In this document: positions 1 through 25,394 of the stretch, piece by piece
Position numbering within the stretch: position 1 is the stretch's first letter
Layout: each line of letters begins with the position of its first letter
Origin: Escherichia phage vB_Eco_mar004NP2
DNA length: 64,000 bases
Sequence record: NC_048205.1
Direction: 5' to 3' (one strand)
Program-made: the position numbers and the translations under genes
Notes under the pieces: generated by a model
Database searches by the model: none
The model's input: only the letters and a program-made list of their open reading frames with translations
Told to the model about the DNA's origin: nothing

Positions 1-136
1 CCTTTAATGTTAGCTGGGGGAGTTACAGCGTATTTCACCCTTTTCTCCCCGATACTTATGTACTCAATTTACCCAATAACTATGTATCTAGTTAGGAAAA
101 GATTTATACATGCAGTAGATTAAGATAAAAAAGTAG

Positions 137-165
137 TTGACTTTTAGCCCTAGTTATTATATAAT
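137..165 (+). promoter_or_regulatory. sigma70-type promoter TTGACT-N17-TATAAT
   Basis: -35 at 137-142, -10 at 160-165, 17-bp spacer; followed by conserved ATATACATAAATT box; upstream of ATG 199. Confidence 0.5.
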
Positions 166-198
166 ATATACATAAATTAGTTAAGAGAGGTATATATT

Positions 199-630
199 AT
201 GTCTGATCGTTTCTACACTCAAATGGCGGAACATTTTCGTATACCACATTACGAGCTAAACATTGCACTCCGTGATCATGACTCTCCTGAGTACAAAAAG
301 CTCGAAAAGAAAGCGGAAAAATCTATTGATACAAAGGTAGGTGCATCTATGTCTAAGGGCAAAAAGTTAACTCGTCTTGATCTTAATAAAATTTTAACTG
401 AACTTTTGGGTACTGATATTGAAGGTGCTAAATTACCACTTCTTGTACTAGAGACTATGATTAAAAAGGTCAAAAATAAAGAATATAAGAAGGTAGAAGT
501 CCCAGAGGGCAGATTAAAGGCTCCTTATCAGGAAGCATTAACCGAGTGTTTGGGTGTAAATCTTGATCTGAGCACCGCAACCGTAAAAACTATGAAAAAC
601 TTCTTAGAGGCCATTAATAACTATGAGTAA
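199..630 (+). CDS. hypothetical early protein (143 aa)
   Basis: ORF with RBS GAGAGG upstream; downstream of strong promoter. Confidence 0.6.
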   Translation: MSDRFYTQMAEHFRIPHYELNIALRDHDSPEYKKLEKKAEKSIDTKVGASMSKGKKLTRLDLNKILTELLGTDIEGAKLPLLVLETMIKKVKNKEYKKVEVPEGRLKAPYQEALTECLGVNLDLSTATVKTMKNFLEAINNYE

Positions 631-913
631 ATTAGTCTATCTATTAAAAGGTTCCACCTGTAACCCGTGTAAACTTTTCGAGCCAGTATTTGATAAAGTA
701 GTCAGTGACTATAATTTGGAAATCCATAAAGAGACTGATAATACAGAATTAATGCAGAAATTTGGTGTGCGCCAAGTTCCTGTAGTAGTTCTGGCGGATC
801 GCTTACCTAATGGTCGAGTAGAAGCTAATCATATTCTGATTGGACGTCAGCTTCGTAAAGAAACTATGCACGAAGCTATTAAAAATTTCCTGGATGATAA
901 TCCAGAGGACTAA
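623..913 (+). CDS. thioredoxin-like small redox protein (CNPC motif)
   Basis: 96 aa; C-x-x-C (STCNPCK) followed by KFGVRQVPVVVL, resembling thioredoxin-fold layout; ATGA-type overlap with upstream ORF. Confidence 0.5.
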   Translation: MSKLVYLLKGSTCNPCKLFEPVFDKVVSDYNLEIHKETDNTELMQKFGVRQVPVVVLADRLPNGRVEANHILIGRQLRKETMHEAIKNFLDDNPED

Positions 914-920
914 TAAACAA

Positions 921-952
921 AGCCTGATCTTAGCTGATCAGGCTTTTATTTT
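921..952 (+). terminator. rho-independent terminator
   Basis: hairpin AGCCTGATC..GATCAGGCT followed by TTTTATTTT. Confidence 0.55.
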
Positions 953-954
953 AC

Positions 955-983
955 TTGCTTTTTGCTAAAAATTTTGGTATAAT
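955..983 (+). promoter_or_regulatory. sigma70-type promoter TTGCTT-N17-TATAAT
   Basis: -35 at 955-960, -10 at 978-983; followed by conserved TATAAATTGATGA box. Confidence 0.5.
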
Positions 984-1040
984 ACTTATATAAATTGATG
1001 AAAAGGCTATCTACACACTACAAGAAATAGGGGTATTCCA

Positions 1041-1418
1041 ATGAACTATGCATATCTAATTATTAATAATAACGTAGTTTGTGGTACTCGCGCCGTTGAG
1101 ATGGGTATTACAGAAGAAAAGTATAAGTCACTTCCAGAAAAGGAACAACAATATTATGTTGAAGAAGCTGCTTGGGAATATGCTGATGTTTATCCCGAAC
1201 AGCGTGAAGATCGCGTTACTATTGTTGTCTCTTTGGGGCTGGTTGGCTGTGATACCGAAGTTGATACAGACCTAGAGACTTTAGAAGAGTGGGGAGAATT
1301 AGACATTTCAGCTAAAAACTCTTTAATCCGTGAGGCTTTTTGGGAAGCAGTTGACTGCCATGTTGTCTTTGAGCCTAACGATGAGGAAGCTGAGAAGCAT
1401 ACTAACCACTGGGGATAA
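1041..1418 (+). CDS. hypothetical early protein (125 aa)
   Basis: ORF with RBS AGGGG; acidic protein. Confidence 0.6.
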   Translation: MNYAYLIINNNVVCGTRAVEMGITEEKYKSLPEKEQQYYVEEAAWEYADVYPEQREDRVTIVVSLGLVGCDTEVDTDLETLEEWGELDISAKNSLIREAFWEAVDCHVVFEPNDEEAEKHTNHWG

Positions 1419-1422
1419 TTAA

Positions 1423-1668
1423 ATGTTAGCGGAACAAGCAAAACGTTTAGCTAGGATAAATAGAGCTGCAATTCTTAAGAGCAGAAAGAAACCATATAAG
1501 TATGTTAAAAAGAGAATAGTTTCTTCTGTGGAGATTGGAGGTTCTTTTGTACAGTTTAATCGTGATGAAATTAGTTATGAAGCTATAAAAGCCCTCTATA
1601 AAGAGGGTTATACTCTCCAACTATCTAATGAGTATGGCACAACTATTTTAACTGTTATTTGGGAATAA
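1423..1668 (+). CDS. hypothetical protein (81 aa)
   Basis: ORF tightly packed between neighbours. Confidence 0.5.
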   Translation: MLAEQAKRLARINRAAILKSRKKPYKYVKKRIVSSVEIGGSFVQFNRDEISYEAIKALYKEGYTLQLSNEYGTTILTVIWE

Positions 1669-2534
1669 TTATGAAAAAAGAATTTAATGTACATAAAACT
1701 CTAGTAGTGCCAGATGATGCCAACTTGTTTTTCGTTGGTGATATTCATGGATGCAATGATTTGCTGGAAGATGCGTTGAAATTAGCTGGGTATAATAGCA
1801 AGAAAGATTGCGTAGTATGTGTTGGTGACTTAATTGACCGGGGCACACAAAACTTACAAGTTTTAGCTAAATTCTTATATAATCCACGTTTTTGTAGCGT
1901 TCGTGGAAATCATGACCAGTTTATGATTGTAGGAGATTGGGCTAACTGGATGTATAATGGAGGTATGTGGGCTATGAATGAGCTGGACGCAGATACCATT
2001 AAAAATATTGCCGAAGACATGGCTGAAAAACTTCCAGTATTTATGACTGTGCTGCATCGTGGCAAGAAGTATGGTGTTGTTCATGGTGGTGTACCTTTTA
2101 CATACAAAGAATGTGGTAACGAAGTAGAAACTCCAGTATGGGATAACCTTATTGCACAAGTAGAAGCAGCTAAGGAAGACCCACATGACCATCCTGGATA
2201 CCATGTTGAACCATATTTATGGGATCGAGATGTAATACAAGAAATAGGCTTCCATTTGTCCAAAAATGGTGAGGAACACCCGTATTTCCAGCGTTATTCT
2301 GGGTTTAAAGAAAAATACATGGTAGAAATACCTCCAGTTAGTGGGGTAGACTTTGTGTTTCATGGGCATACTGGAGTACCTTACCCTATTTTACACCAAA
2401 ATCGTGTTTACTTAGATACTGGCGGTGTTTTCAACGGGCAGTTGACGGTTGCGCAAGTTAATGATGAAACTGGCAAAATCACAACATTTACCACGCTTCG
2501 CGAAGATAGCTGTGGCATACAGAGGATTCTTTAA
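1659..2534 (+). CDS. Ser/Thr protein phosphatase (calcineurin-like metallophosphatase)
   Basis: motifs GDIHG, GDLIDRG, GNHD read in translation; 291 aa. Confidence 0.8.
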   Translation: MGIIMKKEFNVHKTLVVPDDANLFFVGDIHGCNDLLEDALKLAGYNSKKDCVVCVGDLIDRGTQNLQVLAKFLYNPRFCSVRGNHDQFMIVGDWANWMYNGGMWAMNELDADTIKNIAEDMAEKLPVFMTVLHRGKKYGVVHGGVPFTYKECGNEVETPVWDNLIAQVEAAKEDPHDHPGYHVEPYLWDRDVIQEIGFHLSKNGEEHPYFQRYSGFKEKYMVEIPPVSGVDFVFHGHTGVPYPILHQNRVYLDTGGVFNGQLTVAQVNDETGKITTFTTLREDSCGIQRIL

Positions 2535-3055
2535 TGAAAGTCTGCTTTTGGAGCGATCTACACTTAGGACATGCAAATATTACTAAATTCAGACCAATCT
2601 TCTCTACTATGGAAGAGCATGATGAATTTATTATGGATACTATTACATCCATGAAAGATAAGCGTACAGTATTTTATATTTTAGGGGATGCATTTGTATC
2701 TAGAAATGGTTTGGAGAAATTCGAAAAACTCTTTAGTAATGTTAGAACTACATTAGTTTTGGGGAACCACGACTTAGAACGAGAAGGGTTATCTTTCAAA
2801 GACTTAGTGGGAGTTGTAGATAACGTACAATCCCTAGTTAAGTATAAAAACTTTTGGCTTTCCCATGCTCCAGTACATCCAGAAGAGTTAAGGGGCAAGA
2901 AGAACTTACATGGGCATACTCACTTTGAGTTAATGGGGGACCCTCGTTATATTAACGTTTGTGTAGAGTATGCAAAATCACCAGTACGCCTGGAAGACAT
3001 CATGAATGGTAAGTACACTTCTCATGATAAAACTAGCTGGATGTTAAATGTCTAA
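2534..3055 (+). CDS. small metallophosphoesterase-like protein
   Basis: DLHLGH, GNHD, HGHTH motifs; 173 aa; start overlaps upstream stop. Confidence 0.55.
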   Translation: MKVCFWSDLHLGHANITKFRPIFSTMEEHDEFIMDTITSMKDKRTVFYILGDAFVSRNGLEKFEKLFSNVRTTLVLGNHDLEREGLSFKDLVGVVDNVQSLVKYKNFWLSHAPVHPEELRGKKNLHGHTHFELMGDPRYINVCVEYAKSPVRLEDIMNGKYTSHDKTSWMLNV

Positions 3056-3163
3056 GTATATAGCTGAGGTTATTATTAAACGAATTATACAGGCGATAGC
3101 AATACTTATAATCATTTGTATTGCTATTGGCACAGGATTAGGCATTTTAATTGAAAGTTTTAT

Positions 3164-3192
3164 TTGCTAAAATGCCTAAGTTTCTGTATAAT
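3164..3192 (+). promoter_or_regulatory. sigma70-type promoter TTGCTA-N17-TATAAT
   Basis: -35 at 3164-3169, -10 at 3187-3192; conserved TTTATAAATTGATGAGAAGG downstream box. Confidence 0.55.
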
Positions 3193-3222
3193 TACTTTAT
3201 AAATTGATGAGAAGGAATCAAA

Positions 3223-3654
3223 ATGAACAAAGTTGATAAAGCTCTAGTTTTCACAGCAGCAGATAAGTTTGAACAAGTTAAGGCAACTTTCCGAACCTTG
3301 TTCCAGTCTTACGTTCAGGATAAGTCTAATCCTATCTCTGAACGTTTGATGGTCTGGGAATGTCATGCATGCAATGCCTTATTAATTGCTGATTATCGTA
3401 GCGATATAGATAAAGATCTGTGCGAAATTCTTATCGCTGAGGAGGCAGAACGTTATCAGTTAATCTCTTTCCAAGATTTGGCAGAGCATATCATTCCCGA
3501 TGATCTTTGGGATAAATACTATGGTGATCCTGAAGATGAAGGAATGACTCCAGAAGCATGCATTGAGCTGATCTGCAAAGATCATCCTGAAATTGCAGAG
3601 AAATTTGAAAAAGTTTTTGCTTCTGAGTTCTCCGGCGTTGTTAACGATTGGTAA
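3223..3654 (+). CDS. hypothetical early protein (143 aa)
   Basis: ORF with RBS GAAGGA. Confidence 0.6.
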   Translation: MNKVDKALVFTAADKFEQVKATFRTLFQSYVQDKSNPISERLMVWECHACNALLIADYRSDIDKDLCEILIAEEAERYQLISFQDLAEHIIPDDLWDKYYGDPEDEGMTPEACIELICKDHPEIAEKFEKVFASEFSGVVNDW

Positions 3655-3671
3655 GTAATTAAAAAATTCAG

Positions 3672-3700
3672 TTGCTTTAAGCCTTAAAATTCTGTATAAT
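3672..3700 (+). promoter_or_regulatory. sigma70-type promoter TTGCTT-N17-TATAAT
   Basis: -35 at 3672-3677, -10 at 3695-3700; same downstream ATAAATTAATGAGAGAGG box. Confidence 0.55.
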
Positions 3701-3714
3701 AAGTTCATAAATTA

Positions 3715-3984
3715 ATGAGAGAGGAAATTCTAATGGAAAACATGACTAAAAATGAAATGGCTAACGTTCTGGCAATTCTCCTCGACATGCAGGGTTTTGA
3801 AGGCCAGCTCATGAAGATGTCTATTCCGGCAATGAAAAAGATGTACGATTCCCTGAATAAGAATGCTATGGCGTTCAACCTTGCAAAACAAGAAGCACGT
3901 TTTGCTAAAGAGCATCAGGCAACTGCCGAACGTCGTGCAGCATCTTTTGAGCGTGAAGTTAAGCAACTGAAAGGTAAGAAATAA
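3715..3984 (+). CDS. hypothetical protein (89 aa)
   Basis: ORF after promoter; basic C-terminus. Confidence 0.55.
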   Translation: MREEILMENMTKNEMANVLAILLDMQGFEGQLMKMSIPAMKKMYDSLNKNAMAFNLAKQEARFAKEHQATAERRAASFEREVKQLKGKK

Positions 3985-4148
3985 TGGAAAGAATATCCAT
4001 TTTTATGCTATCACTCCTTTTAGGAGTGTTAATATATAGTATAGTTTCTCTTCACACACGTTTAGCAGAACTAGACAATTCTATCCACGAGTTAAATGTG
4101 GAGTTGTGTAAACTAGTTCCAAACAATGAAAAATGTAAGGATATTTAA
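3984..4148 (+). CDS. small single-pass membrane protein (54 aa), not in ORF track
   Basis: ATG overlaps upstream stop (TAATG); hydrophobic N-terminal helix then helical tail; coupled to next ORF. Confidence 0.4.
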   Translation: MERISIFMLSLLLGVLIYSIVSLHTRLAELDNSIHELNVELCKLVPNNEKCKDI

Positions 4149-4429
4149 TGTTGATTGAAATTCTTATTGGGTTACTAGTTCTTACTACACTAGTAGCGAT
4201 TGGTGGAGTTATTGGGATTGTGAATGCACGAAAAAACATGGAAAGTATGCTTAGTACTAATGATGGACTACACCACCGTTTGCTAGAGCAAGAGCAAGAT
4301 ATTGAATTAGCACAAAGACGCTCGGATATTCTTAAGGAAAAACTAAATAGTATAGAAGCAATAGTTGGGAATAATAAATTACCGGCTAAAGTAATGCGTA
4401 CACAGATAATCACGGAGATTAAAAAATGA
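4148..4429 (+). CDS. small membrane protein with coiled-coil tail (93 aa)
   Basis: N-terminal TM helix LIEILIGLLVLTTLVAIGGVIGIV then charged helix. Confidence 0.55.
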   Translation: MLIEILIGLLVLTTLVAIGGVIGIVNARKNMESMLSTNDGLHHRLLEQEQDIELAQRRSDILKEKLNSIEAIVGNNKLPAKVMRTQIITEIKK

Positions 4430-4671
4430 TGATGTTTATTCTAGCATTTTATCTAATCGTGGTGGGAGTTCTAGTTACTAAGTACCATACATGGGCACCA
4501 AAGAATGTAGTTAAGGTAGCACTATTTGTTATTCCAGTCCCACTTATTATACTTTCTATGTTACTGGTGATGTTAATTGGTAAAGTGACGAAGACCGATA
4601 TTAAACGCATTGCTGATGAATTGCAACAGTCTTGTGATATGGTAGAGGATATTCTTAAAGATGAAGCTTAA
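4426..4671 (+). CDS. small two-TM membrane protein (81 aa)
   Basis: two hydrophobic segments; ATGA overlap with upstream gene. Confidence 0.55.
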   Translation: MMMFILAFYLIVVGVLVTKYHTWAPKNVVKVALFVIPVPLIILSMLLVMLIGKVTKTDIKRIADELQQSCDMVEDILKDEA

Positions 4672-4987
4672 TTTTAATGAATTAAATACCTTACATGAGA
4701 TACTACAGTTTGTGAATAATAATATTAGCATTCCAGATGACACGCTAGAAGTTCTCATGTTAATCGAGAAAAAGGTAGGAATTGAAATTGAGGATTCTTG
4801 GAAACCACTTTCTGTATTAACACCACTTAATATGAAAGTGATAGTTAAAAATATTGATACTGGTGAAGAGTGTGAAATGATTCGTAAAGAACTAGCTGAT
4901 AGCTATTCACCAAAGTCTGTAGTAATGTACCATGATGATACCGCTAAGACTCTACAGACAGCTAATTATGTATGGCGTCTCCCATGA
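4661..4987 (+). CDS. hypothetical protein (108 aa)
   Basis: ORF. Confidence 0.5.
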   Translation: MKLNFNELNTLHEILQFVNNNISIPDDTLEVLMLIEKKVGIEIEDSWKPLSVLTPLNMKVIVKNIDTGEECEMIRKELADSYSPKSVVMYHDDTAKTLQTANYVWRLP

Positions 4988-5130
4988 TTGATTTAGTACC
5001 AATTACTGCGGGGCTAATAGCACTATTAGTGCTCGCAGTTTTCATTATTGTGGAGCAGGCCAAAGTAATAAGGAGACTTAAAAACAATGGTAAAACGTCT
5101 TGTTTATCAGGCACCAAAGATTGTAACTGA
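4984..5130 (+). CDS. possible small membrane protein (48 aa), not in ORF track
   Basis: ATGA overlap with upstream stop; hydrophobic core; overlaps next ORF start in another frame, so uncertain. Confidence 0.25.
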   Translation: MIDLVPITAGLIALLVLAVFIIVEQAKVIRRLKNNGKTSCLSGTKDCN

Positions 5131-5287
5131 GTATTTTGTATTACTGCCTCAGATTGTATTTCTAACAGCATTATTTAATATACTTTTTCGACATCTAGGA
5201 ATAACGGAAAATATCTTCTACACTTCTGGGCTACTTCCTTTTATGTACGAAGGCATCATCGTGGCAATTAACGGAGTTCGTAAATGA
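5087..5287 (+). CDS. small membrane protein (66 aa)
   Basis: strong RBS AAGGAGA; hydrophobic segment. Confidence 0.5.
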   Translation: MVKRLVYQAPKIVTEYFVLLPQIVFLTALFNILFRHLGITENIFYTSGLLPFMYEGIIVAINGVRK

Positions 5288-5745
5288 CAGCACTACAACA
5301 ACTACAGAATTACTGGTTTGATAACCAATTTAACGATCTCTTCATCCAGTTGTTTGTCGAAACGAACGGACGCTTCAACTACCGATTCTTTAATAAGTTT
5401 CACGAAACAAAATTCTCGCATACAGAAATTAATGCAGCAATCCAAGACCTAACTGGTTCTAAAGTAATTCAGTATCGTGAAGTAGACTTCACACCAGATT
5501 GTTTTGGGTTTGAATTGTTTAAGAAAGCGTATAAATTTGGTAAGTTTGAGGATGCTCGTCAATGGGTTCATGATTTCTGGTACAACACCGATATTGTCCC
5601 TAGTCGCGTGCTGATTCTTAACTGGATTGCTAAGCAACATCCACCTAAAACGCAATCATCCTTCTTACCGACTGACACAGGAAACCTCTACCATGACAGA
5701 AAAGAAAAACCCATTATTGGAGCAGATGAAGGAGTGGGAGAGTAA
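5284..5745 (+). CDS. hypothetical protein (153 aa)
   Basis: ORF, ATGA overlap with upstream gene. Confidence 0.55.
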   Translation: MTALQQLQNYWFDNQFNDLFIQLFVETNGRFNYRFFNKFHETKFSHTEINAAIQDLTGSKVIQYREVDFTPDCFGFELFKKAYKFGKFEDARQWVHDFWYNTDIVPSRVLILNWIAKQHPPKTQSSFLPTDTGNLYHDRKEKPIIGADEGVGE

Positions 5746-6064
5746 TATTGAAACTGGTCTAATAGACGGTGAAGATATTGTCAACTCCATGCTAGAAGTA
5801 ACAGTAGATAATATTAATCCTATTTTGGCTGGAGAAACCTCAGATCTTATAGGACTCTCTAGCACATTTGATTCTTTGGCTAAATTAGCTTTAGACGATG
5901 AAGATATAACCAAAGAAGATCTCGCTACAGCTATGAATATGGCTATTAATGCTTACATCGGTAAACGTACTGATGAACTTGGTAAACAGATCAATAAGCG
6001 TGATGCTACGCTAGGTCTTATGGAAACGGCCACTATGTTAAGAAGTGGTAAACAACTTCATTAA
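5693..6064 (+). CDS. hypothetical protein (start trimmed to MTEKK)
   Basis: ORF track start 5627 overlaps upstream gene by >100 nt; internal ATG with AGGA upstream chosen. Confidence 0.45.
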   Translation: MTEKKNPLLEQMKEWESNIETGLIDGEDIVNSMLEVTVDNINPILAGETSDLIGLSSTFDSLAKLALDDEDITKEDLATAMNMAINAYIGKRTDELGKQINKRDATLGLMETATMLRSGKQLH

Positions 6065-6071
6065 TTTTAGG

Positions 6072-6104
6072 AGGCCAGGACTTAGTTGTTCTGGCCTTTT
6101 ATGT
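6072..6104 (+). terminator. rho-independent terminator
   Basis: hairpin GGCCAGGAC..TCTGGCC followed by TTTTATGTTTT. Confidence 0.55.
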
Positions 6105-6120
6105 TTTCAAGGAACTTCAA

Positions 6121-6324
6121 ATGCAAGTATATGTCCTTACTAGAGATATAAATGAGTATAATCAGGATGGTGAGTATTTTGTAAAAGTATTCGCTGAAAA
6201 GCCAAGTAAACAACAATTATTAGATGCGGGGGTACCCGAAGACCAGGCTAAGTGTATACTACAAGATAAAGAGTTTACCGGGGATGCTTACGAATGTTTC
6301 TACCTTAACTGTGAGACTATTTAA
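6121..6324 (+). CDS. hypothetical protein (67 aa)
   Basis: ORF after terminator. Confidence 0.45.
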   Translation: MQVYVLTRDINEYNQDGEYFVKVFAEKPSKQQLLDAGVPEDQAKCILQDKEFTGDAYECFYLNCETI

Positions 6325-6325
6325 T

Positions 6326-6772
6326 ATGAGAGAGAAAGTAAATGAATTATTAATCGAGGAAGCTAACAACTTTCCAATAAATAGGTTCATCAAATCGGAT
6401 GGATCTATTAATAGAACTAAAATTAAGCAGCTACATCCCGACTTCCAACAAGAAGCACTAAACCTTATATTTATCAAGAAAGCTGTTGCAGCTCATGGAG
6501 CTTTCTTCGGGTATGAGCGTGTAAATTATAAGACAATGCAACAGCAAGTTGAGATCTATTGTCCAGATCACGATGGTTATTACTGGCAAACTGCTAGATC
6601 TCATTTAGAAGGTCATGGATGTCGACTGTGCGCACACAAGGTTGTGCAGCGTGTCACGGATTATGGAACTTATACCGTACCAGCATGTTACCATAAATTT
6701 GTAATTGACGATAATCATATAGTTTGGTATAATAAGTTTTCAAAGCTAAGAATGGAGATAAGTAGTGAGTAG
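6326..6772 (+). CDS. zinc-ribbon protein with homing-endonuclease-type CxxH..GxGCxxC motif
   Basis: YERVNYKTMQQQVEIYCPDHDGYYWQTARSHLEGHGCRLCAHK; same motif class as ORFs at 24721-25394; start trimmed to ATG 6326. Confidence 0.45.
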   Translation: MREKVNELLIEEANNFPINRFIKSDGSINRTKIKQLHPDFQQEALNLIFIKKAVAAHGAFFGYERVNYKTMQQQVEIYCPDHDGYYWQTARSHLEGHGCRLCAHKVVQRVTDYGTYTVPACYHKFVIDDNHIVWYNKFSKLRMEISSE

Positions 6773-7055
6773 CTATATTGTATGGTCAAACCCACTAGCA
6801 GCACTTAGTAACAAACTATTTAAAACAACGTGGGGGTATAATGAAATAGACTTAGGTAGTCGCCCAATACCAAACAAACACCCCTTAGTTCCAGAGCTGT
6901 ATAAGGTAGTGATAAATGGCACGGAGTATTTGGTTGATAAATTTGACAGAAAACGTTTACTAGAGGGTATCTACGATAATTCTACATCGATAAATGAATT
7001 AGTAGAACATGCCCAAATATACGATAAGAGCTGGATGTTAATATGGAGATCATAG
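6765..7055 (+). CDS. hypothetical protein (96 aa)
   Basis: ORF. Confidence 0.5.
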   Translation: MSSYIVWSNPLAALSNKLFKTTWGYNEIDLGSRPIPNKHPLVPELYKVVINGTEYLVDKFDRKRLLEGIYDNSTSINELVEHAQIYDKSWMLIWRS

Positions 7056-7276
7056 TAATTATTTTAGCAGTTATGTTATTTATTGTAACATTTGTATCGT
7101 TTGCTATTATGCGCAGAGCTATAGAACTAGCGGAAGATATAACAAAATTACGCGGTGAGTTGGCTGCTCTTAAACTACAACGTGAAGCCCTCAAGCTATT
7201 TGTAGCTCAAGGTAGCGTAGAGCATACAGCAGAAGACTTCATCATATATCTCAAACGTTACATGGGAGTTAAATAA
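7043..7276 (+). CDS. small membrane protein with coiled coil (77 aa)
   Basis: N-terminal TM helix plus heptad-like helix. Confidence 0.5.
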   Translation: MEIIVIILAVMLFIVTFVSFAIMRRAIELAEDITKLRGELAALKLQREALKLFVAQGSVEHTAEDFIIYLKRYMGVK

Positions 7277-7461
7277 TGGAAACTCTTTTTCTTTTAATGC
7301 TCGTAGGTTCCTTGCTAGTTATATTAGCACTTCTACTGATCTGCAATATTCTTAATAATAAGAATCTAGAGCTAAAGTGTGAGAACCAAATCCTTAACCG
7401 TGAACTTAAACAATATAATCTAGCAGCCCATAAACTGTTAGACAAACTGGAGAATAAATAA
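7276..7461 (+). CDS. small membrane protein with coiled coil (61 aa)
   Basis: TM helix LFLLMLVGSLLVILALLLI plus helical tail; coupled start. Confidence 0.5.
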   Translation: METLFLLMLVGSLLVILALLLICNILNNKNLELKCENQILNRELKQYNLAAHKLLDKLENK

Positions 7462-8063
7462 TGTTTACACAACAACCTATTCAAGTAGTACCAGACCATG
7501 AACTGAACACATGGGATTATAGCCTTAAAGATTTAACTGCTACTGTACAATTCAAATCTATGAAGCTAACATTTGCACACACTGACCTTAGAGCCTGTAA
7601 AGATCTTGAAGGTAAGCTCGAAGATGCTCGTAGGATTTTTGGCACGGCTCGCATCCCGGCTGATAACCTGATTAATGCACTAATCGATGCGGGATACAAA
7701 CTCGTGAAGACTGAGGTGAACCGCCCCAATACTCCAGTGACTATTAGAGACCCGTGGCAGTCAGGGCCAAATACAATGTGGAACAGCCCTAAAATAACGT
7801 CGGATTTGCACAATGTTCCTTGTGGGGGTGTGGTAAGTAGTACGAAGTCATATAAGTTTGGTGAAGATTATGGGCCTTCTGTACAGTTAAAGCATACCCA
7901 AGAAGCTCTTGAATCTGACATGAAAAGCGTAGCGCCTGCGGATACTGAAGGTTTTAGAAGTCCCATCTATGTTACTCACTTTAATAATCTTAGACCTGGG
8001 AGTATAAATGATACTATCCTTGAGGCGTTGGGAGCTGCTCTTAATGAGAGTAAAAAGGATTAA
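7461..8063 (+). CDS. hypothetical protein (200 aa)
   Basis: ORF, ATGA-type coupling. Confidence 0.55.
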   Translation: MFTQQPIQVVPDHELNTWDYSLKDLTATVQFKSMKLTFAHTDLRACKDLEGKLEDARRIFGTARIPADNLINALIDAGYKLVKTEVNRPNTPVTIRDPWQSGPNTMWNSPKITSDLHNVPCGGVVSSTKSYKFGEDYGPSVQLKHTQEALESDMKSVAPADTEGFRSPIYVTHFNNLRPGSINDTILEALGAALNESKKD

Positions 8064-8143
8064 TAATTTCCTAATACATGAGCCTCTACGGAGGCTCTAA
8101 AATAAAAAGAAGGTCATCCAGACCTTAAAAACGGGAGATAATA

Positions 8144-9028
8144 ATGTATAACTTTAAAGATAAACTAAGACAAAATGCTGGTAAAACAAAACCTAAAGAG
8201 AATAATAATGTTCCTAATGCCAAAGTATTACCATTTCCAGAACTGTCTCAAGAAGAAAAAGATAAGTTAGCATTTATGTTTGATGCTCTTCTAGGGCTAA
8301 GTGGACGTTTATATTCCTCACTCAATATTAATGAGAAACGTCTAGTAGAGATGTTCTGTAAACGTTACCAAGTTACTTCAAAGGGCAATTCTTATAAAGA
8401 AGGTGAAAAAGCATTTACAGTCTTAAAGATTAGCGCATATGCACATCGTTTCTTAGTTTATGGATTGCAAATGGAATACTTCACCATCCCATCATTTAGC
8501 TCTTTCCATATCTTTGAAGATGAACGAATGAATATTGATGATCTCTATGGGGATACGTACAAATACTCAGGAAGTCCATTCCACGATGCATTAAGGAGCT
8601 ACCCTACTAGTTACTTACCAGTTAGGGCATCTCAAGGTAAAGCTAGCGTTTTTGCTGTTTACTCAGGATCTAAAGCATCGGATCTAGAAACTTATATATT
8701 TAAAGAGCGTAAATCTGTACTTCCAGATGAAGCATTGTATAGCAATCCATTGCTTCCAGAAAAAGAACCAGAGAAAATTGATGTAACCCCACCAATCCCA
8801 TCTGATTCTCAATATTTAATTTATGAGAAACAAGTTAAGTTATCCCTAGAAATTGGGTTAGTTACACCGCTTGCTGCAGCGTTCATAAATAGATACCTAG
8901 AAATCCCAGATGAGTTCCACCAACGTTATAATACGAATATTCAGATAACGGATGAATTAATTGCGTTAGCAAAAGATACACCTACTGACACTGAGGCGTA
9001 TCAAAAAGCATACCAAGAGTTATTATAA
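8144..9028 (+). CDS. hypothetical protein (294 aa)
   Basis: ORF with RBS GGGAGA. Confidence 0.6.
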   Translation: MYNFKDKLRQNAGKTKPKENNNVPNAKVLPFPELSQEEKDKLAFMFDALLGLSGRLYSSLNINEKRLVEMFCKRYQVTSKGNSYKEGEKAFTVLKISAYAHRFLVYGLQMEYFTIPSFSSFHIFEDERMNIDDLYGDTYKYSGSPFHDALRSYPTSYLPVRASQGKASVFAVYSGSKASDLETYIFKERKSVLPDEALYSNPLLPEKEPEKIDVTPPIPSDSQYLIYEKQVKLSLEIGLVTPLAAAFINRYLEIPDEFHQRYNTNIQITDELIALAKDTPTDTEAYQKAYQELL

Positions 9029-9561
9029 TATTCTGCATGTCTCGGTGCACAATACCTGTACCGAGACTCAAATACAAACTCTCGTTGACAGATAGCTAAA
9101 TGTATGTTATCATAACTCTATGAGTTAATAGAATTAACCATTTAGAGTTGCCACACAGAAGGTGTGGTGGTTCAGTAATTTAAAATTACTAACTTGTAGC
9201 GGAGGATACGGAGCGACAGGACAAGTTAATAAGTAATTTAATATAAATTGCTAGAAACATCACGAGACCTTCTGGCGGGGGCAAAGCTCTATATGAGAAC
9301 CCTGGGGGATCTTATATTTAAAATAAAAGTAAAACTTTTGACCATATAATTTACATTCAAGATGATACACCTGTTGCCGCTCATCTGCTAGGATGGCACA
9401 ACACTTTCTTCTAGACTCCTAAGTTTCTAGGAAAACTCTTACACTCTAGGGCAGTTTCTCTCCAACGTTACATATCCTAGGCCGGTTTAATACAGGGCGG
9501 TTATTGGGAGGGCGGTTATTTCTAGAAGACATTTTTCCAAAACACATTTCCAGAAATTACT

Positions 9562-10163
9562 GTCGGATTCGCACATTGTGTTTCTAGAAATTTATGGTCG
9601 GATTTGCACAATTGCCTAAGTTTTCATGGACACATAATCTCCTGAAAATGGCAGCATTATTTCGGGCCGAAGGCCCATGATTGCCTGAGTTTTTAGAGCC
9701 ACAAGAATTTTCACTTGTCAAGCTATTTTGCCACCTTTAGCAAATAAAATTTTACTTTATCTCCACTAATCTCAAATTAACCCAAATCTTCTCAACTCTT
9801 CCCCCAAAAACGCAGCAAATCAGGCGTTGCACGCCACCCATGCTGCTCCTCCAGTTTCTCCACTTATTTTCTCTCGCTCTCTCATCTTCTCCTCAAACCT
9901 ATACAATCACACACCCTCCAATCGAAGTCACAAAAATCTTGTCGGATTCGCACATCTTAATCCTAGAAAAACCGTGTCGGATTTGCACATATCCCACAGG
10001 ATTCGAACGCAGTTCGAGATTGCTGGAGTTTTTGGGAAAATTCATTGTCGGATTTGCACACTATAAAAATTTTTGGGGTCGGATTTGCACACTACCAAAA
10101 ATTGTCGGATTCGCACATACACGCCCGCGCGTAATCCATGGTGGCAAATGTCGGATTTGCACA
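9562..10163 (+). repeat. array of 8 direct 14-bp iterons GTCGGATT(C/T)GCACA
   Basis: copies at 9562, 9597, 9941, 9976, 10047, 10078, 10104, 10150, all same orientation, irregular spacing. Confidence 0.85.
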
Positions 10164-10189
10164 AAAGCGCAGGGCAATTGCCCTGCGCT
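10164..10189 (-). terminator. perfect GC-rich palindrome; likely terminator for the minus-strand cassette
   Basis: AGCGCAGGGCAATTGCCCTGCGCT, 11-bp stem; on minus strand followed by TTTTGTG. Confidence 0.45.
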
Positions 10190-19798: not shown

Positions 19799-20044
19799 TT
19801 AGCGCATAGAAGGGTCATCAAACCTGTATTCTGGTCTGAACTCACGGAATCTCTTCCGCGACGCCCGAGATCCATCCGACCACTCCCGCTCAAACTCCGC
19901 ACGTTTCTCGTCAAACTTCCGCTCCCTTTCCGCAATCTCCCGCGTCACTCCCGCAATATATTTACGATGCTTATTGATTGCCGCAGTCGTCCCGAAAACT
20001 CCCGTGAGTATCCCGATAATAAAAGCAATTACAATACTAAACAT
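19799..20044 (-). CDS. small membrane protein with charged helical tail (81 aa)
   Basis: TM helix FSIVIAFIIGILTGVFGTTAA; 8-nt overlap with upstream ORF. Confidence 0.5.
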   Translation of the reverse strand: MFSIVIAFIIGILTGVFGTTAAINKHRKYIAGVTREIAERERKFDEKRAEFEREWSDGSRASRKRFREFRPEYRFDDPSMR

Positions 20045-20231
20045 CTAATTCCCTCTCAATTTGCAGAATACGGGTACTATCACAGCGTTGAAGCTCTACT
20101 AATTTTTCTAGTGCAAATTGTTGCTGCTTTACCTGGGCCTCTAGAGTTTTTAGGCGAACATACGCGGTATAAGAAACAATGAAAATTGCCCAGATTAATA
20201 TTACTATTAATGTAGCTGCCACTTCCATCAT
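20037..20231 (-). CDS. small membrane protein with coiled coil (64 aa)
   Basis: TM helix plus heptad-like tail; ATGA overlap with upstream ORF. Confidence 0.5.
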   Translation of the reverse strand: MMEVAATLIVILIWAIFIVSYTAYVRLKTLEAQVKQQQFALEKLVELQRCDSTRILQIERELDV

Positions 20232-20335
20232 TTACGTTTCTCCAGCAATAAAGTTTCAATTCTAGCTAAGTGATTATCTAAAATACATTGCCCAATAATC
20301 ACAATCCCTAATAGTGCAATAATTACCCATTCCAT
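20228..20335 (-). CDS. tiny membrane protein (35 aa), not in ORF track
   Basis: translated by hand; TAATG overlap with upstream ORF, ATGA with downstream. Confidence 0.35.
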   Translation of the reverse strand: MEWVIIALLGIVIIGQCILDNHLARIETLLLEKRK

Positions 20336-20463
20336 TAAATCCACCCCGCCATAGCTGCTAACCAAAAACCTACGAAAATAAAGAATAGGAGAGTTCCGAA
20401 CCCAAAACTATTTATCCAACTCTCATACACCTCTCCGCGTCTATTATTTCTTTTGTTTGACAT
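20335..20463 (-). CDS. tiny membrane protein (42 aa), not in ORF track
   Basis: translated by hand; RBS GGAG upstream; hydrophobic C-terminal half. Confidence 0.35.
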   Translation of the reverse strand: MSNKRNNRRGEVYESWINSFGFGTLLFFIFVGFWLAAMAGWI

Positions 20464-20630
20464 ATCTTTCGTGCTCCCATAAATGTGATATTTTAAAATA
20501 TGTGCATAACCAACCGTGCTTGTGGACTCCTAGAAGGACTTCTACTTTTCTTACATAGTGGTTTCTGCCAATATACCATCCAAGAAATAAAAAATTTAGT
20601 TTACTTGGATGTCTTTTTGTTTTATACTAA

Positions 20631-20897
20631 TTACAGGTAATTAGATTGCTCTAGTTTAAATTTACAATCACCATATTTAAGGTCAAACTGACTGAGATCC
20701 CACCACCCAAATTTAGTACGGAGCTGTACTACTGGAAAGCGATCTCCCTTAATACGAACTTTTTGAACCTTGAGACCGTAATATTCTTCTCCCGCACCAC
20801 CAAAAGATTTTACAAATCCCGTACAAAATGGTTTGGGAGCAGGTACACAACCAGATAATATAACTGTGGCAACTAGTGCAATTACAAACTTTTTCAT
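20631..20897 (-). CDS. llp: Llp-like lipoprotein (receptor-blocking, superinfection exclusion)
   Basis: signal peptide plus lipobox LSGC; 88 aa; divergent from receptor-binding protein gene, as in T5 llp/oad. Confidence 0.65.
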   Translation of the reverse strand: MKKFVIALVATVILSGCVPAPKPFCTGFVKSFGGAGEEYYGLKVQKVRIKGDRFPVVQLRTKFGWWDLSQFDLKYGDCKFKLEQSNYL

Positions 20898-20982
20898 ATT
20901 TATCTCTCCATTTCTAATTTATGAATTTATTATAGCAAAATAGAGGGATGAAAGCAAATACATTTTTATAATAGGAGATTAT

Positions 20983-22740
20983 ATGGGTTTTTTCGCTGGA
21001 AAGTATAGCGATGGTAAGACCGTACTATCTTTAAATACTGAATCTGGGGGTGACATTAATCGTCACTATAGTCCAAGTAATAATAGTATTTTTCATAGTG
21101 ATATGCCATTTGTTCTAGTTGAGGGTACTTATGAGGCAGGATTAGGTGATGCCGGGAATGGGTTTTTCGTATGTCAGATGCCTCCTGATATAGTAAATAT
21201 TAAATCTAATGATCCTGGTAGAGTTATACTAACTGCTATTGAGATTAATGGTACTCACAGAGCTTTTCTTAATGGTACTCAGAGTAAAGTTGGTCAAACT
21301 ATAGTTGCCACTCAAGCAGACCCCTTTAGATCTTTTGCTAGTGTTTCTCAAACCAGTGGATTTGCATTTGGTAATAGTCTAGCATCTGGAACTTATAATT
21401 ATAACCCATCGATAGGGCACGAAGAATCTATCTCTAGGAGTGGTACAGGTGGTACTACGTTACATAGTACCTACCATGGGATAGTTAGGCCTGGTGCGGG
21501 AGCTCCTGTAGGTGTTACTGTTGCAGAAGCCTTTGCACAATTAGGTTTTCCTACTAATAGTAGCACAGTACCTGTAGATGGGAATAACCCGTACTATTGG
21601 GATCCTGGATGGATGTCGCCTCTAGGAGCAGCACATAGAGGGCATGATTGGTTTTATGTTTGCAACTCTAATATACGTGGATACGGTGGGGTTAGACAAG
21701 GGCTCCCAGGTAATGTAAATACTATGTACCACGACGGTGGGAACAGATTTGTTTGTAGGGGATCTACTACTAATTTAGCTAACCAGTCGGGTGACTCTAC
21801 AATACTACAGGATTGGTATAATATAACCCCTACTAAGGTTATTTGGTATGTTCTTAATTTAAGGTACTCTAATGGTGGAATGAGTATTTCAGGCAACCCC
21901 TTTACTGGTTCTGATATTCTTATATCTCCTTCTAATTTCATAATTAAAGGGGTAAGTCTCCCTAATACCGGGTATAAATTTATAAATCAGAATGCTTTTG
22001 GTAACCTAGGTTACCGTCCTGATATGGAGTATATAGGAAATAACGCAGCGTATACCGGGGTTTTTGGGGATACCACGGCAAGGTGTGAACTTGTAGGGTC
22101 TAGTAATGGAGGATTATGGTCTCCTGTAGACTATGGTGGAGCTAAATCCCAAATTAGCATTTACAAATTCGGAGCTGGTAAGCAATGGTATGTAAACTCT
22201 AGGGATAATACTATCGGTAATGAACACGGGGTTGTTTGGGGACCATCAGCAGTTCCATTACGACTTTTTGGTGGAAATGTAGGTAGCTCTTACATGGGGG
22301 ATGATATTACTCCCAGCTACCCGGGAACAGGGGATAGATACGTTGGTTTATCAACTATTGGGCTAGGTATACCGGGTGGCAATGCTACAGTAATTCTTAC
22401 CACTGAAGTTATATCAGGTAACCTTAACTGTGCAGGTGTTCCTGCTAATACATGGAATAACGGTGTGTTTCAAGTGCAAGGAAGAAGAGCATATAGCTAT
22501 AGTAATGGAGATGCAATATTCCACCAGATTTTAACATTACCAGTAGGGTATTTAGTACCTTTTCATACTACATCTGCTTTTAGGTACACACCTAACAATG
22601 CCCTAAGTAGAAATAGTTTTATATATACTGCTAAAAATCTGGGGAATGGAAATGTAGAGTTAGGGGTAGTTATGCACGTAAGTTTAGGTAGTGCAGTTTT
22701 CCTACCGAGATTAAGAGTAACAGTTCAACGCCTTACCTAA
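20983..22740 (+). CDS. receptor-binding tail protein (pb5/Oad-like)
   Basis: 585 aa Gly/Asn/Ser-rich protein divergent from llp-like gene; first gene of late block. Confidence 0.6.
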
Positions 22741-22750
22741 AGGAGGAAAT

Positions 22751-23233
22751 ATGGCAAATGATGTATTAGTACCAGATCTTATGTCCCCTGAAGGGATGGA
22801 TGTAATTGAAGCATATTTACAGTGTGGCAGCGATGTGCCTTCTGCCGCACGTAGTCTTGGGATGTCCGAAATTGCTTTTCGAGATATTATGAATCGTAGT
22901 GAAGTTAAGAACTACTTAAATGATATTTTTATGGAGAGTGGTTTCCGTAACAGAGATCGTTTATTTGGTGTTCTGGATGAAGTTATCAAGCGTAAACTAG
23001 AGGAACTAGAAGAAACTGGCATGGGTTCTGACCAAGATATTATGGATATTCTCTGGAAAGCACATAAAATGAAAATGGAAGAAATGAAAATGATGGTAGA
23101 ACTGGAGAAAGTGAAGGCAGCAGCCCGTACTCCAGCTAACCAGACCAACATCCAGAATAATATTATTGCTGGAGCTGGGGATCAAAACTACATGGACTTA
23201 ATTACTTCCCTAGCTACTGGAGGTAAGAAGTAA
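22751..23233 (+). CDS. putative terminase small subunit (160 aa)
   Basis: immediately upstream of and coupled to terminase large subunit; positional. Confidence 0.4.
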
Positions 23234-24549
23234 TGGAAGTATCAAGACCTTACGTTAATACAGTAGATGTTATTGATTTCGGAATAGATAAACGTTTCTT
23301 TCGTCTACCTGTTTCGGGAATACTAGCACAAGAAGGTATTACACCTAATGGTCCTCAAATAGCGATTATTAATGCTCTAGAGGATCCTAGACATCGTTTT
23401 GTAACGGCGTGTGTATCACGCCGTGTAGGTAAATCCTTCATCGCATATACTCTTGGGTTCCTAAAATTGCTGGAACCTAATGTGAAGGTGTTAGTAGTTG
23501 CTCCTAACTATTCACTGGCCAACATCGGATGGTCTCAGATTCGTGGTCTTATTAAAAAATATGGCCTACAAACTGAACGTGAGAACGCTAAAGATAAGGA
23601 AATTGAGTTAGCTAATGGTTCTCTGTTTAAACTAGCTTCCGCTGCTCAGGCTGACTCCGCGGTTGGACGTTCATATGATTTTATCATCTTTGACGAGGCG
23701 GCAATTTCCGATGTGGGTGGTGATGCCTTCAGGGTTCAGCTGCGTCCTACTCTAGATAAACCTAATTCTAAGGCTCTATTTATTTCCACACCTCGTGGAG
23801 GTAACTGGTTTAAAGAGTTTTACGCCTACGGATTTGATGATACGTTGCCTAACTGGGTATCTATTCATGGTACATATCGTGATAACCCTCGTGCTGACCT
23901 GAATGATATAGAAGAAGCACGTCGTACGGTTAGTAAAAACTACTTCCGCCAGGAATATGAAGCTGACTTCTCTGTATTTGAAGGTCAGATTTTTGATACT
24001 TTCAATGCTATTGACCATGTTAAAGACCTTAAGGGTATGCGTCATTTCTTTAAAGATGATGAAGCATTCGAAACGTTGCTTGGTATCGACGTTGGTTATC
24101 GTGATCCTACAGCAGTTCTTACTATTAAGTATCATTACGATACGGATACTTACTATGTATTAGAAGAGTATCAGCAGGCGGAGAAAACTACAGCTCAGCA
24201 TGCTGCTTACATTCAGCACTGTATAGATCGTTATAAAGTTGATCGTATTTTTGTTGACTCCGCGGCAGCTCAGTTCCGTCAAGACTTAGCTTATGAGCAT
24301 GAAATTGCATCAGCTCCAGCTAAAAAATCTGTCCTAGATGGCCTAGCATGCCTGCAAGCACTGTTCCAACAGGGTAAGATTATTGTAGATGCCTCATGCT
24401 CCTCCTTAATTCATGCACTGCAGAACTATAAGTGGGACTTCCAAGAAGGTGAAGAGAAATTATCACGTGAAAAACCACGTCATGATGCTAATTCTCACCT
24501 TTGTGATGCGCTGCGCTATGGAATTTACTCTATTTCCCGTGGTAAATAA
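23233..24549 (+). CDS. terL: terminase large subunit
   Basis: 438 aa; Walker A-like SRRVGKS; position upstream of portal. Confidence 0.8.
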   Translation: MEVSRPYVNTVDVIDFGIDKRFFRLPVSGILAQEGITPNGPQIAIINALEDPRHRFVTACVSRRVGKSFIAYTLGFLKLLEPNVKVLVVAPNYSLANIGWSQIRGLIKKYGLQTERENAKDKEIELANGSLFKLASAAQADSAVGRSYDFIIFDEAAISDVGGDAFRVQLRPTLDKPNSKALFISTPRGGNWFKEFYAYGFDDTLPNWVSIHGTYRDNPRADLNDIEEARRTVSKNYFRQEYEADFSVFEGQIFDTFNAIDHVKDLKGMRHFFKDDEAFETLLGIDVGYRDPTAVLTIKYHYDTDTYYVLEEYQQAEKTTAQHAAYIQHCIDRYKVDRIFVDSAAAQFRQDLAYEHEIASAPAKKSVLDGLACLQALFQQGKIIVDASCSSLIHALQNYKWDFQEGEEKLSREKPRHDANSHLCDALRYGIYSISRGK

Positions 24550-24827
24550 ATAAGTATAGGATGGGATACTACTCAGTTGGTATCCCATTCCTGCATTTTA
24601 AAATCCCCTTTACAAATTCGATACGATTATGTATACTATATTCATTGATCGGGAGAACTTCTCCCATAATAGAACGTAAACAAGAAAAATTAATGCTCTA
24701 CATGGGGTGTAGGAGATTCTATGGGTCGACAAAAGCTAACAATAAAAGATATAAATATTAGATTAGCTGATCGTGGAATCCAAATTGTCGGTGAGTATGT
24801 AAACCAACGTACAAAAACAGTATTTAA

Positions 24828-25394
24828 ATGCCAGAGAGCACATGTTTGGGAAGCAACACACATTCTATACTCCATATGGGGAGAGGTTGTCCACACTGCT
24901 CCAATAATACAATATCGTTAGATGAAGTTAATAACAGAATATCTAATATAGGGTATACTCTGTTAAGCAGCTATACTAATGCTAAAACAAAACTACATCT
25001 ACGCTGCAATAAGGGGCATGACTGTTTACTTACCTTAGATGGATTGACTCAAGGTAAGAGATGTCCTTATTGTTCTCTTAAGTGGGAGAATGGCGGATTC
25101 CTCTATATCATGTCCTCCTCTAGTGGTACTAAAGTAGGCATAAGCTTATACCCTGAGAAACGGCTGAATGAAGTTAAAAGAGAATCTGGATTTTCTGACC
25201 TATACTTGTTCACCATGTATCATCTGCCAGATAGAGAGACTGCTTTAGATTTAGAAAAGGAAGTTCACAGAGAATATTATAATAAAAACTGTGGGTTTTC
25301 TAATTTTACAGGAAGCACGGAATTTTTTAATGTTGCTCCTGAGGATATAGTAATCTTTCTAAGTAGCTTTGGATTGGAGGATTATGGCCACTAA
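24828..25394 (+). CDS. homing-endonuclease-like protein (zinc ribbon plus GIY-YIG-like/T5orf172-type region)
   Basis: CPHCS..CPYCS zinc motifs; GFLYIMSSSSGTKVGIS resembles GIY-YIG-like core; upstream 24721-24921 fragment in another frame has the same motif. Confidence 0.5.
   Translation: MPESTCLGSNTHSILHMGRGCPHCSNNTISLDEVNNRISNIGYTLLSSYTNAKTKLHLRCNKGHDCLLTLDGLTQGKRCPYCSLKWENGGFLYIMSSSSGTKVGISLYPEKRLNEVKRESGFSDLYLFTMYHLPDRETALDLEKEVHREYYNKNCGFSNFTGSTEFFNVAPEDIVIFLSSFGLEDYGH

Follow-up and report, generated by a model that had tools for sequence, protein, structure and literature searches.

A receptor-binding protein and its cognate blocking lipoprotein in Escherichia phage vB_Eco_mar004NP2: evidence for a BtuB-type host-recognition module

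Which outer-membrane receptor is recognized by the tail-tip protein encoded at the head of the late gene block of Escherichia phage vB_Eco_mar004NP2, and is the same receptor blocked by the small lipoprotein whose gene is transcribed away from it? The question was pursued in a stretch of 64,000 nucleotides of this phage (NC_048205.1), here called the window, in which the divergent gene pair occupies positions 20631–22740. With high probability the locus is the module by which a T5-like phage (Tequintavirus) recognizes its host through BtuB. The two genes, what they do and the receptor they concern are all known already and belong to textbook T5-like biology. The features discussed below are the following.

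20501–22723, no strand: exchangeable receptor-recognition cassette over which DNA homology to T5 is lost (blastn against T5)
20631–20897, minus strand: llp, predicted 88-residue receptor-blocking (superinfection exclusion / lytic conversion) lipoprotein of the BF23/BtuB type (open reading frame, LPAM_1, PHROG 1119)
20898–20982, no strand: divergent intergenic spacer of 85 bp with both Shine-Dalgarno sites and the putative llp promoter
20929–20957, minus strand: putative llp promoter, sigma-70, T5 early type (exact match to TTGCTT-N17-TATAAT)
20983–22740, plus strand: predicted receptor-binding tail-tip protein (RBP; oad/hrs, pb5 homolog), BtuB-specific allele of 585 residues (PHROG 4815)
22751–23233, plus strand: terS, downstream of the RBP gene
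23233–24549, plus strand: terL, after terS

In the program-made list of open reading frames, the 88-residue frame covers 20631–20897 on the minus strand and the 585-residue frame 20983–22740 on the plus strand, so that the start codons point apart across the 85-bp spacer; a gap of 10 bp separates the RBP gene from terS on the same strand, and terL is followed on the plus strand by genes for the portal, a decoration protein, a protease and the major head protein. Both frames can be identified as real genes and not chance frames, since their products match PHROG 4815 (E = 3e-273) and PHROG 1119 (E = 7e-24) and since the pair recurs in hundreds of phage records. The same layout, with a divergent llp and an RBP gene directly 5′ of terS and terL, is found in T5, BF23, DT57C, SPC35, EPS7 and phiR2-01. 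A preliminary description had reported a lipobox-bearing 88-residue protein divergent from a Gly/Asn-rich protein of 585 residues at the head of the late block and had likened the pair to the llp/oad arrangement of T5; its coordinates are right to the base, the larger protein contains 13.8% Gly and 8.7% Asn (and 9.1% Ser), the late genes do follow on the plus strand, and the pair lies, as in T5, between small open reading frames adjacent to the terminal repeat and terS, in the same divergent orientation.

The 585-residue protein can be placed, by sequence, in the pb5/Hrs family of T5-like tail-tip proteins. The match to PHROG 4815 (receptor binding tail protein) extends over residues 1–585; a Pfam search with the RBP gave no family match, and a search of the PDB recovered pb5 (8b14/8a8c) with E = 5e-50, in two stretches. 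The protein aligns end to end with T5 pb5 at 29.8% local (tblastn) and 35% global identity; the N-terminus, the central region (residues 284–430 of the window protein) and a C-terminal LPxxxxxxQRLT motif are conserved. The fold is settled by this match to a solved protein; the receptor-contact loops of pb5 are poorly predicted by AF2 (PMC9586334). Far closer than T5 are the RBPs of the BtuB type, with global identities of 74% (DT57C), 72% (SPC35), 68% (BF23) and 57% (phiR2-01), a matrix that leaves out EPS7 because its deposited RBP record is frameshifted; by tblastn the identities are 73.7% to DT571/2, 68.6% to EPS7 and 55% to phiR2-01. According to Krauel and Heller (1991), as cited in PMC10644984, the Hrs protein of BF23 functionally replaces pb5 in T5. 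By analogy, we infer that the window protein is seated on the tip of the straight fiber (pb4), where it would bind the vitamin B12 transporter BtuB irreversibly and thereby trigger DNA ejection; attachment to the tail would be the task of a scaffold made up of the conserved N- and C-terminal parts and the central sheet, and BtuB specificity would reside in the shortened and divergent counterparts of the pb5 loops that enter FhuA.

The assignment of the receptor follows from a sibling isolate, Salmonella phage SPLA5b (OR413584.1; Tequintavirus, Demerecviridae). Outside the module, the window is approximately 99.8% identical to SPLA5b, with a few single-nucleotide differences and one 1-bp indel; across the 2.4 kb from 20500 to 22900 it shows 100.0% megablast identity to both SPLA5b and PMBT29. 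Within the module, 2400 of 2401 nucleotides are shared with SPLA5b, the sole difference lying at 22332 (GGG versus GGT, both Gly), and both RBP and Llp are 100% identical to their SPLA5b counterparts at the amino-acid level; by these comparisons the window phage is a sibling isolate of SPLA5b and not the same record. In SPLA5b, the susceptibility gene found by TraDIS is btuB, and no plaques formed on S. Typhimurium ST4/74 from which btuB had been cleanly deleted; LPS mutants were more sensitive to this phage, which the authors explain by masking of BtuB through O-antigen (PMC10949491). Because SPLA5b, with identical RBP and Llp, requires BtuB, an experiment that was done on this sibling isolate 99.8% identical to the window, BtuB is taken as the receptor here. 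The RBP also clusters with proteins of the BtuB type (57–74% identity), far from T5 (35% global, 30% local), and BF23, SPC35, DT57C, DT571/2, EPS7 and phiR2-01 are described as users of BtuB (among other sources, PMC10644984, PMC4728585, PMC12980165). The suggestion in the preliminary description that the receptor may differ from FhuA is thus supported, given the BtuB dependence of a phage with the identical RBP and the 30–35% identity to pb5; that description had treated the alternative as open, although the BtuB-type allele of BF23 has been known since Mondigler et al. (2006), as cited in PMC10644984 and PMC4728585. It had also named a full-length alignment with pb5 combined with a need for FhuA as the outcome that would speak against it; the alignment is indeed full length, at low identity, but the transporter that is needed is BtuB.

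The end-to-end alignment with pb5 could be read in favor of another TonB-dependent transporter as the target, either FhuA, the receptor of T5, or FepA, that of phages H8 and S124, with the lipoprotein blocking the same protein; for Citrobacter phage Cit2, with 97% identity between its RBP and that of the window, FhuA has in fact been inferred on the strength of "96.9% identity to the RBP of T5" (PMC12980165, 2026). The deposited sequences do not reproduce this value, since the RBP of Cit2 shows 30% identity to T5 pb5, and the remaining identities given in the same paper (71.8% to SPC35, 66.7% to BF23, 73.2% to DT57C; PMC12980165) are those of a BtuB-type protein. For these reasons the FhuA assignment of Cit2 is most likely an error, and its RBP and Llp, discussed in that paper as a "decoupling" of the RBP from a BtuB-type Llp (PMC12980165), most likely form an ordinary matched BtuB pair. 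For the window RBP itself, the identity to pb5 is just 30–35%, and a 97%-identical protein reached 27.7% against the RBPs of H8 and S124, which are of the FepA type (PMC12980165); T5 is unaffected by the Llp of DT57C (PMC4728585), and SPLA5b with its identical proteins requires BtuB (PMC10949491). A FhuA- or FepA-directed module is very improbable on this evidence, and both specificities were rejected on account of the BtuB dependence of SPLA5b and the low identity to pb5 and to FepA-type proteins. Evidence contradicting the identification as a BtuB module was not encountered.

An RBP at least 95% identical to that of the window occurs in at least 96 deposited phage records, and an Llp at least 95% identical in at least about 116. 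For this widespread subclade with an RBP of 585 residues the receptor would thereby be fixed as BtuB, with the consequences that loss of btuB should give cross-resistance across the subclade, a point for the design of phage cocktails, and that the published FhuA assignment of its member Cit2 is corrected. For the window itself little is at stake, as pair, function and receptor have been published for a phage with identical proteins. As a caveat, phage SIA3lw, in which the module is 97.7% identical, has been reported as unable to infect S. Typhimurium, and host range therefore depends on more than the receptor module.

In a DNA comparison with T5, the module has sharp boundaries. Homology by blastn continues at 84% identity to position 20500, is lost over both genes, with only a weak match across the spacer (70%, 20887–21003), and returns at 97.6% from 22724, that is, in the last 17 nucleotides of the RBP gene, into terS. 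The interval 20501–22723 can on this basis be identified with the exchangeable receptor-binding/receptor-blocking module known from the comparison of BF23 with T5. T5, with pb5/oad and Llp (structures 8b14/8a8c and 8a60/7qjf), shares with the window the architecture, the genomic position and a homologous RBP; it differs in its receptor, FhuA instead of BtuB, and in sequence, with 30–35% identity for the RBP and approximately 27% for Llp. The hrs/llp locus of BF23 resembles that of the window in gene order, divergent orientation, a near-identical spacer of 85 bp, genomic site, an Llp of 88 residues (95.5% identical) and use of BtuB; its RBP has 595 residues and is 68% identical to the window protein, which lacks a 6-residue insertion in the L4-equivalent loop and a 3-residue insertion near residue 252 and is most divergent from it at residues 89–283 and 486–548. 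The closest experimentally characterized RBP outside the window's own subclade is that of DT57C (DT571/2), with 586 residues and 74% identity, accompanied by an Llp with 96.6% identity.

The preliminary description had also noted that the RBP is shorter than pb5, for which it gave about 640 residues; pb5 does have 640, and the window protein has 55 fewer. In the multiple alignment the residues absent from the window protein fall mainly at pb5 positions 170–177, 258–272, 282–291, 562–573 and 581–586. By cryo-EM of the FhuA-pb5 complex, four pb5 loops enter FhuA; L1 is tipped by Gln115 and L2 by Phe170, and L4 comprises residues 570–590 (PMC9586334). Since the gaps coincide with the L2 tip and L4, the shortening appears to lie largely in the receptor-inserting loops, and fits a common tail-docking scaffold on which the loops have been re-tailored for a different barrel lumen. 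The window RBP varies in patches among its BtuB-type relatives as well. Residues 1–88 and 314–400 are nearest to SPC35 and BF23 (93–100% and 92–96% identity, respectively), and in these two parts the protein departs from DT57C; residues 118–170, 252–263 and 529–585 are nearest to DT57C (70–100%), which has 83–87% identity over the L1/L2 region (residues 118–170) and is the nearest relative in the C-terminal loop region also; the lowest identity to any BtuB-type relative is seen at residues of approximately 89–283 and 486–548. As the nearest relatives differ from patch to patch, the window allele can be described as a mosaic of known BtuB-type variants; the 595-residue allele of BF23 and SPC35 is set apart from it by the 6-residue insertion in the L4-equivalent loop and by small indels near residue 252. 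Llp is almost invariant while these RBPs vary, with 94–97% identity for Llp against differences of 26–32% between the RBPs. For DT57C and BF23, Golomidova et al. (2016, PMC4728585) found the same contrast and set the site of recombination between hrs and llp. Together, an Llp that hardly varies and a mosaic RBP with variable loops make up a tidy natural data set on how BtuB is recognized and blocked.

The product of llp begins with MKKFVIALVATVILSGC and carries the lipobox L-S-G-C with Cys17. Its sole Pfam match is LPAM_1 (lipid attachment site; E = 1.6e-4). Val occupies position +2, which by the "+2 rule" predicts Lol sorting to the outer membrane, and the lipoprotein is accordingly predicted to be sorted there. 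The identity of the protein is 95.5% to the Llp of BF23, 96.6% to that of DT57C and 94.3% to that of SPC35, and falls to 66% for the Epseptimavirus (EPS7) type and 51% for phiR2-01; G16, C17, C25 and C78 are invariant columns in the family alignment, so that all three cysteines, at mature positions 1, 9 and 62, are kept throughout the family. When llp of DT57C was cloned, the efficiency of plating fell more than 100-fold for DT57C, DT571/2 and BF23, with no effect on T5, and the Llp of BF23 is reported to exclude more than 10^6-fold (PMC4728585). With exclusion known from proteins of more than 94% identity, the 88-residue protein can be identified as the Llp cognate to a BtuB-type RBP. Automated annotation invites comparison with Cor of T1/phi80-like siphophages by putting the window protein into the "Cor" PHROG 1119, and a "Cor" of the Drexlerviridae phage vojen is 36% identical to it over 80 residues. 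Classical Cor proteins block FhuA; on the window gene, however, "Cor" is a family-level label that says nothing about the target.

A different role for the lipoprotein, as a lysis component of the spanin kind or as some unrelated membrane protein that happens to be encoded beside the RBP gene, is suggested by weak matches of related Llps to Rz-like spanin PHROGs (E = 0.01–0.2); these matches span residues 1–24, that is, the signal peptide only. Against such a role stand also the conservation of place and orientation beside the RBP gene in all six phages compared above (T5, BF23, DT57C, SPC35, EPS7 and phiR2-01) and the 96.6% identity to an Llp of demonstrated exclusion (DT57C; PMC4728585), and its probability is close to nil; the spanin-like role was rejected because the matches are confined to the signal peptide and the DT57C protein excludes phages.

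How the blocking might work is suggested by T5, in which Llp acts from the periplasm: the FhuA plug is bound in a non-native conformation, and EL7 and EL8, two extracellular loops, are folded inward so that they cover the pb5 site (PMC9586334). The window protein is likewise a small lipoprotein, probably with a disulfide; T5 Llp and Llps of the BtuB type match PHROG 1119 over its full length (E = 1e-19 to 7e-24), and mature Cys9 and Cys62 of the window protein correspond to the Cys11-Cys58 disulfide of T5 Llp (PMC9586334). In a direct comparison by hhalign, the family alignment matched T5 Llp over 59 columns (probability 90%, E = 1.6e-6), a score to which signal peptide and lipobox contribute; pairwise identity is approximately 27%, and BLASTP gives 28% over 67 residues, mainly signal peptide and first strands. 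A Foldseek search of the PDB with the AF2 model of Llp, built on a shallow alignment (10 clusters from a word-indexed search, all at least 60% identical), gave no match below E = 0.001; sequence search of the PDB gave chance matches only (E of about 0.7–0.9), and neither an RBP nor an Llp structure of the BtuB type was found in the PDB copy searched. An exhaustive HMMER profile search with the Llp alignment against 1.84 billion representatives found no relative beyond the family's own cluster; a 541-residue tandem-repeat protein (P0011), in which 25 profile positions matched eight times, was judged a chance match and dismissed as a relative. In the literature the Llps of BF23 and T5 are termed non-homologous (PMC10644984, PMC4728585). 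On the present comparisons, the window protein appears to be distantly related in structure to T5 Llp, with which it probably shares a small beta-barrel fold; that BtuB-type Llps are true, highly diverged homologs of T5 Llp which jam the BtuB plug from the periplasm by "reverse allostery" is marginally favored.

Within this reading, timing and promoter use of llp and the localization, disulfide and plug-jamming of its product are inferred as follows. Llp would be transcribed early from a strong spacer promoter of the T5 early type; after export the protein would receive its lipid at Cys17 and be delivered to the outer membrane, in the inner leaflet of which it would reside; a disulfide between Cys25 and Cys78 probably holds it together. 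By analogy with T5 Llp and FhuA, it would bind the periplasmic face and the plug of BtuB and close the extracellular loops allosterically; with BtuB inactivated, the infected cell would be spared superinfection and progeny would not be wasted on cell debris. Periplasmic plug-jamming of this kind appears the most likely mechanism, with chances somewhat better than even, and the near-invariance of Llp beside fast-varying RBP loops fits a conserved periplasmic target. An unlikely alternative keeps the BtuB module and turns the lipoprotein around: flipped to the outer leaflet, Llp would occlude the extracellular mouth of BtuB sterically. In favor of this possibility are the marginal sequence similarity to T5 Llp, the lack of a BtuB-Llp structure among the results of the PDB sequence search, an in vitro study that once placed T5 Llp outside the cell, and the discussion of surface-exposed superinfection-exclusion lipoproteins for receptors that are not TonB-dependent transporters (PMC9586334). 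If plug-jamming from the periplasm is nonetheless correct, it would constitute a general, transporter-independent mechanism of exclusion and a trait of the whole BF23-type family, not a peculiarity of this locus; the near-invariance of Llp would then reflect its conserved periplasmic target, and the RBP loops would chase the variable extracellular loops of the transporter.

The spacer contains the Shine-Dalgarno sites of both genes and the putative llp promoter. Its minus strand reads AAAAATGTATTTGCTTTCATCCCTCTATTTTGCTATAATAAATTCATAAATTAGAAATGGAGAGATAAAT-ATG, and on this strand a −35 hexamer TTGCTT is followed after 17 nucleotides by a −10 hexamer TATAAT that is preceded by TG-n and ends 31 nucleotides upstream of the llp start codon; the Shine-Dalgarno sequence of llp is GGAGA (TCTCC on the plus strand, at about 20905–20909), and that of the RBP gene is AGGAGA (about 20973–20978). 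The window contains seven copies of the arrangement TTGCTT-N17-TATAAT where 1.4 would be expected, and all 100 shuffles gave fewer than seven; strong T5 early promoters, PN25 among them, are built in this way. A generic scan for sigma-70 promoters and terminators over 20300–23300 gave no more sites than shuffled sequence and left the spacer unflagged; it missed the putative llp promoter because TTGCTT scores 3/6 against TTGACA. For the RBP gene, promoter scans of the region yielded no convincing candidate; a plus-strand TATAAT at about 20967–20972 was discarded as too near the start codon and not conserved in T5. The spacer sequence is nearly identical in BF23, DT57C and SPC35 and recognizably conserved in T5, EPS7 and phiR2-01, and the blocks shared with the latter three are the llp promoter elements. 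The spacer promoter would drive llp early, in agreement with the early expression of llp in T5 that is announced in the title of Decker et al. (1994), listed among the references of PMC10644984 and PMC8624392.

The FhuA receptor published for Citrobacter phage Cit2 (PMC12980165) looks wrong from protein comparison. This 2026 paper, which also reported a "decoupling" between the RBP (receptor-binding protein) and the receptor-blocking lipoprotein (Llp) in Cit2, gave FhuA as the receptor from "96.9% identity to T5 RBP"; the deposited Cit2 RBP (OP745948.1, L009:983-2740) is 97% identical to the BtuB-type RBP of the window (20983-22740), and only 30% identical to pb5, the FhuA-binding RBP of T5. 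In the reference record of EPS7 (CP000917.1), the RBP gene (L005:1453-3231) lacks a CDS annotation and is spread over three frames, with two apparent frameshifts that are probably an old sequencing error in this much-cited BtuB-phage record. The T5-like enterobacterial module also occurs, at about 95% identity, in short unannotated "Listeria" and "Campylobacter" phage records, probably mislabelled or contaminant contigs; an example matching the window module is the 14 kb OR846838.1, "Listeria phage LM 4-11-1".

Relatives of the BtuB-blocking Llp may extend to the Drexlerviridae, as hinted by a "Cor" lipoprotein of the T1-like Escherichia phage vojen that shares 36% identity over 80 aa with the Llp of the window (tblastn E=5e-4); its gene (L008:4001-4228) adjoins tail-fibre genes. 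Downstream of llp, and outside the exchanged cassette, lie small genes that are kept in T5 (T5p155-158) and BF23:
19799-20463, minus strand, four small ORFs (81, 64, 45 and 42 aa; PHROGs 6447, 5851, 6369 and 8596)
At least one of the four is a predicted membrane protein, whose Pfam LapA-domain match is sub-threshold (21.6 bits vs. a curated cut-off of 28).

With at most one mismatch tolerated, a search of the window for TTGCTT-N17-TATAAT, the early-type promoter pattern of T5, found seven copies vs. 1.4 expected, most of them with a TG extended -10:
955, 3164, 3672 and 46436, plus strand, pattern matches
20929, 59245 and 63645, minus strand, pattern matches
Copies elsewhere in the window are candidate early or pre-early promoters.

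The start of the window (1-10182) falls "before" position 1 of the record of the near-identical Salmonella phage SPLA5b; it matches, in reverse orientation, the early-gene region adjoining the left terminal repeat of T5, and at 98.6% positions 83720-95678 of another close relative, PMBT29. The source assembly therefore has a collapsed or permuted terminal repeat, which lines up early genes with one copy of the repeat and llp/RBP. Downstream of terL, one base is absent at 24858 relative to SPLA5b (CACC to CAC), so that an endonuclease gene is broken into two ORFs:
24721-25394, split endonuclease gene (224 aa in SPLA5b) with the 1-base indel
24721-24921, 66-aa ORF, piece of this gene
24828-25394, 188-aa ORF, piece of this gene
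This indel could reflect a true frameshift or a pseudogene, or else a sequencing error.
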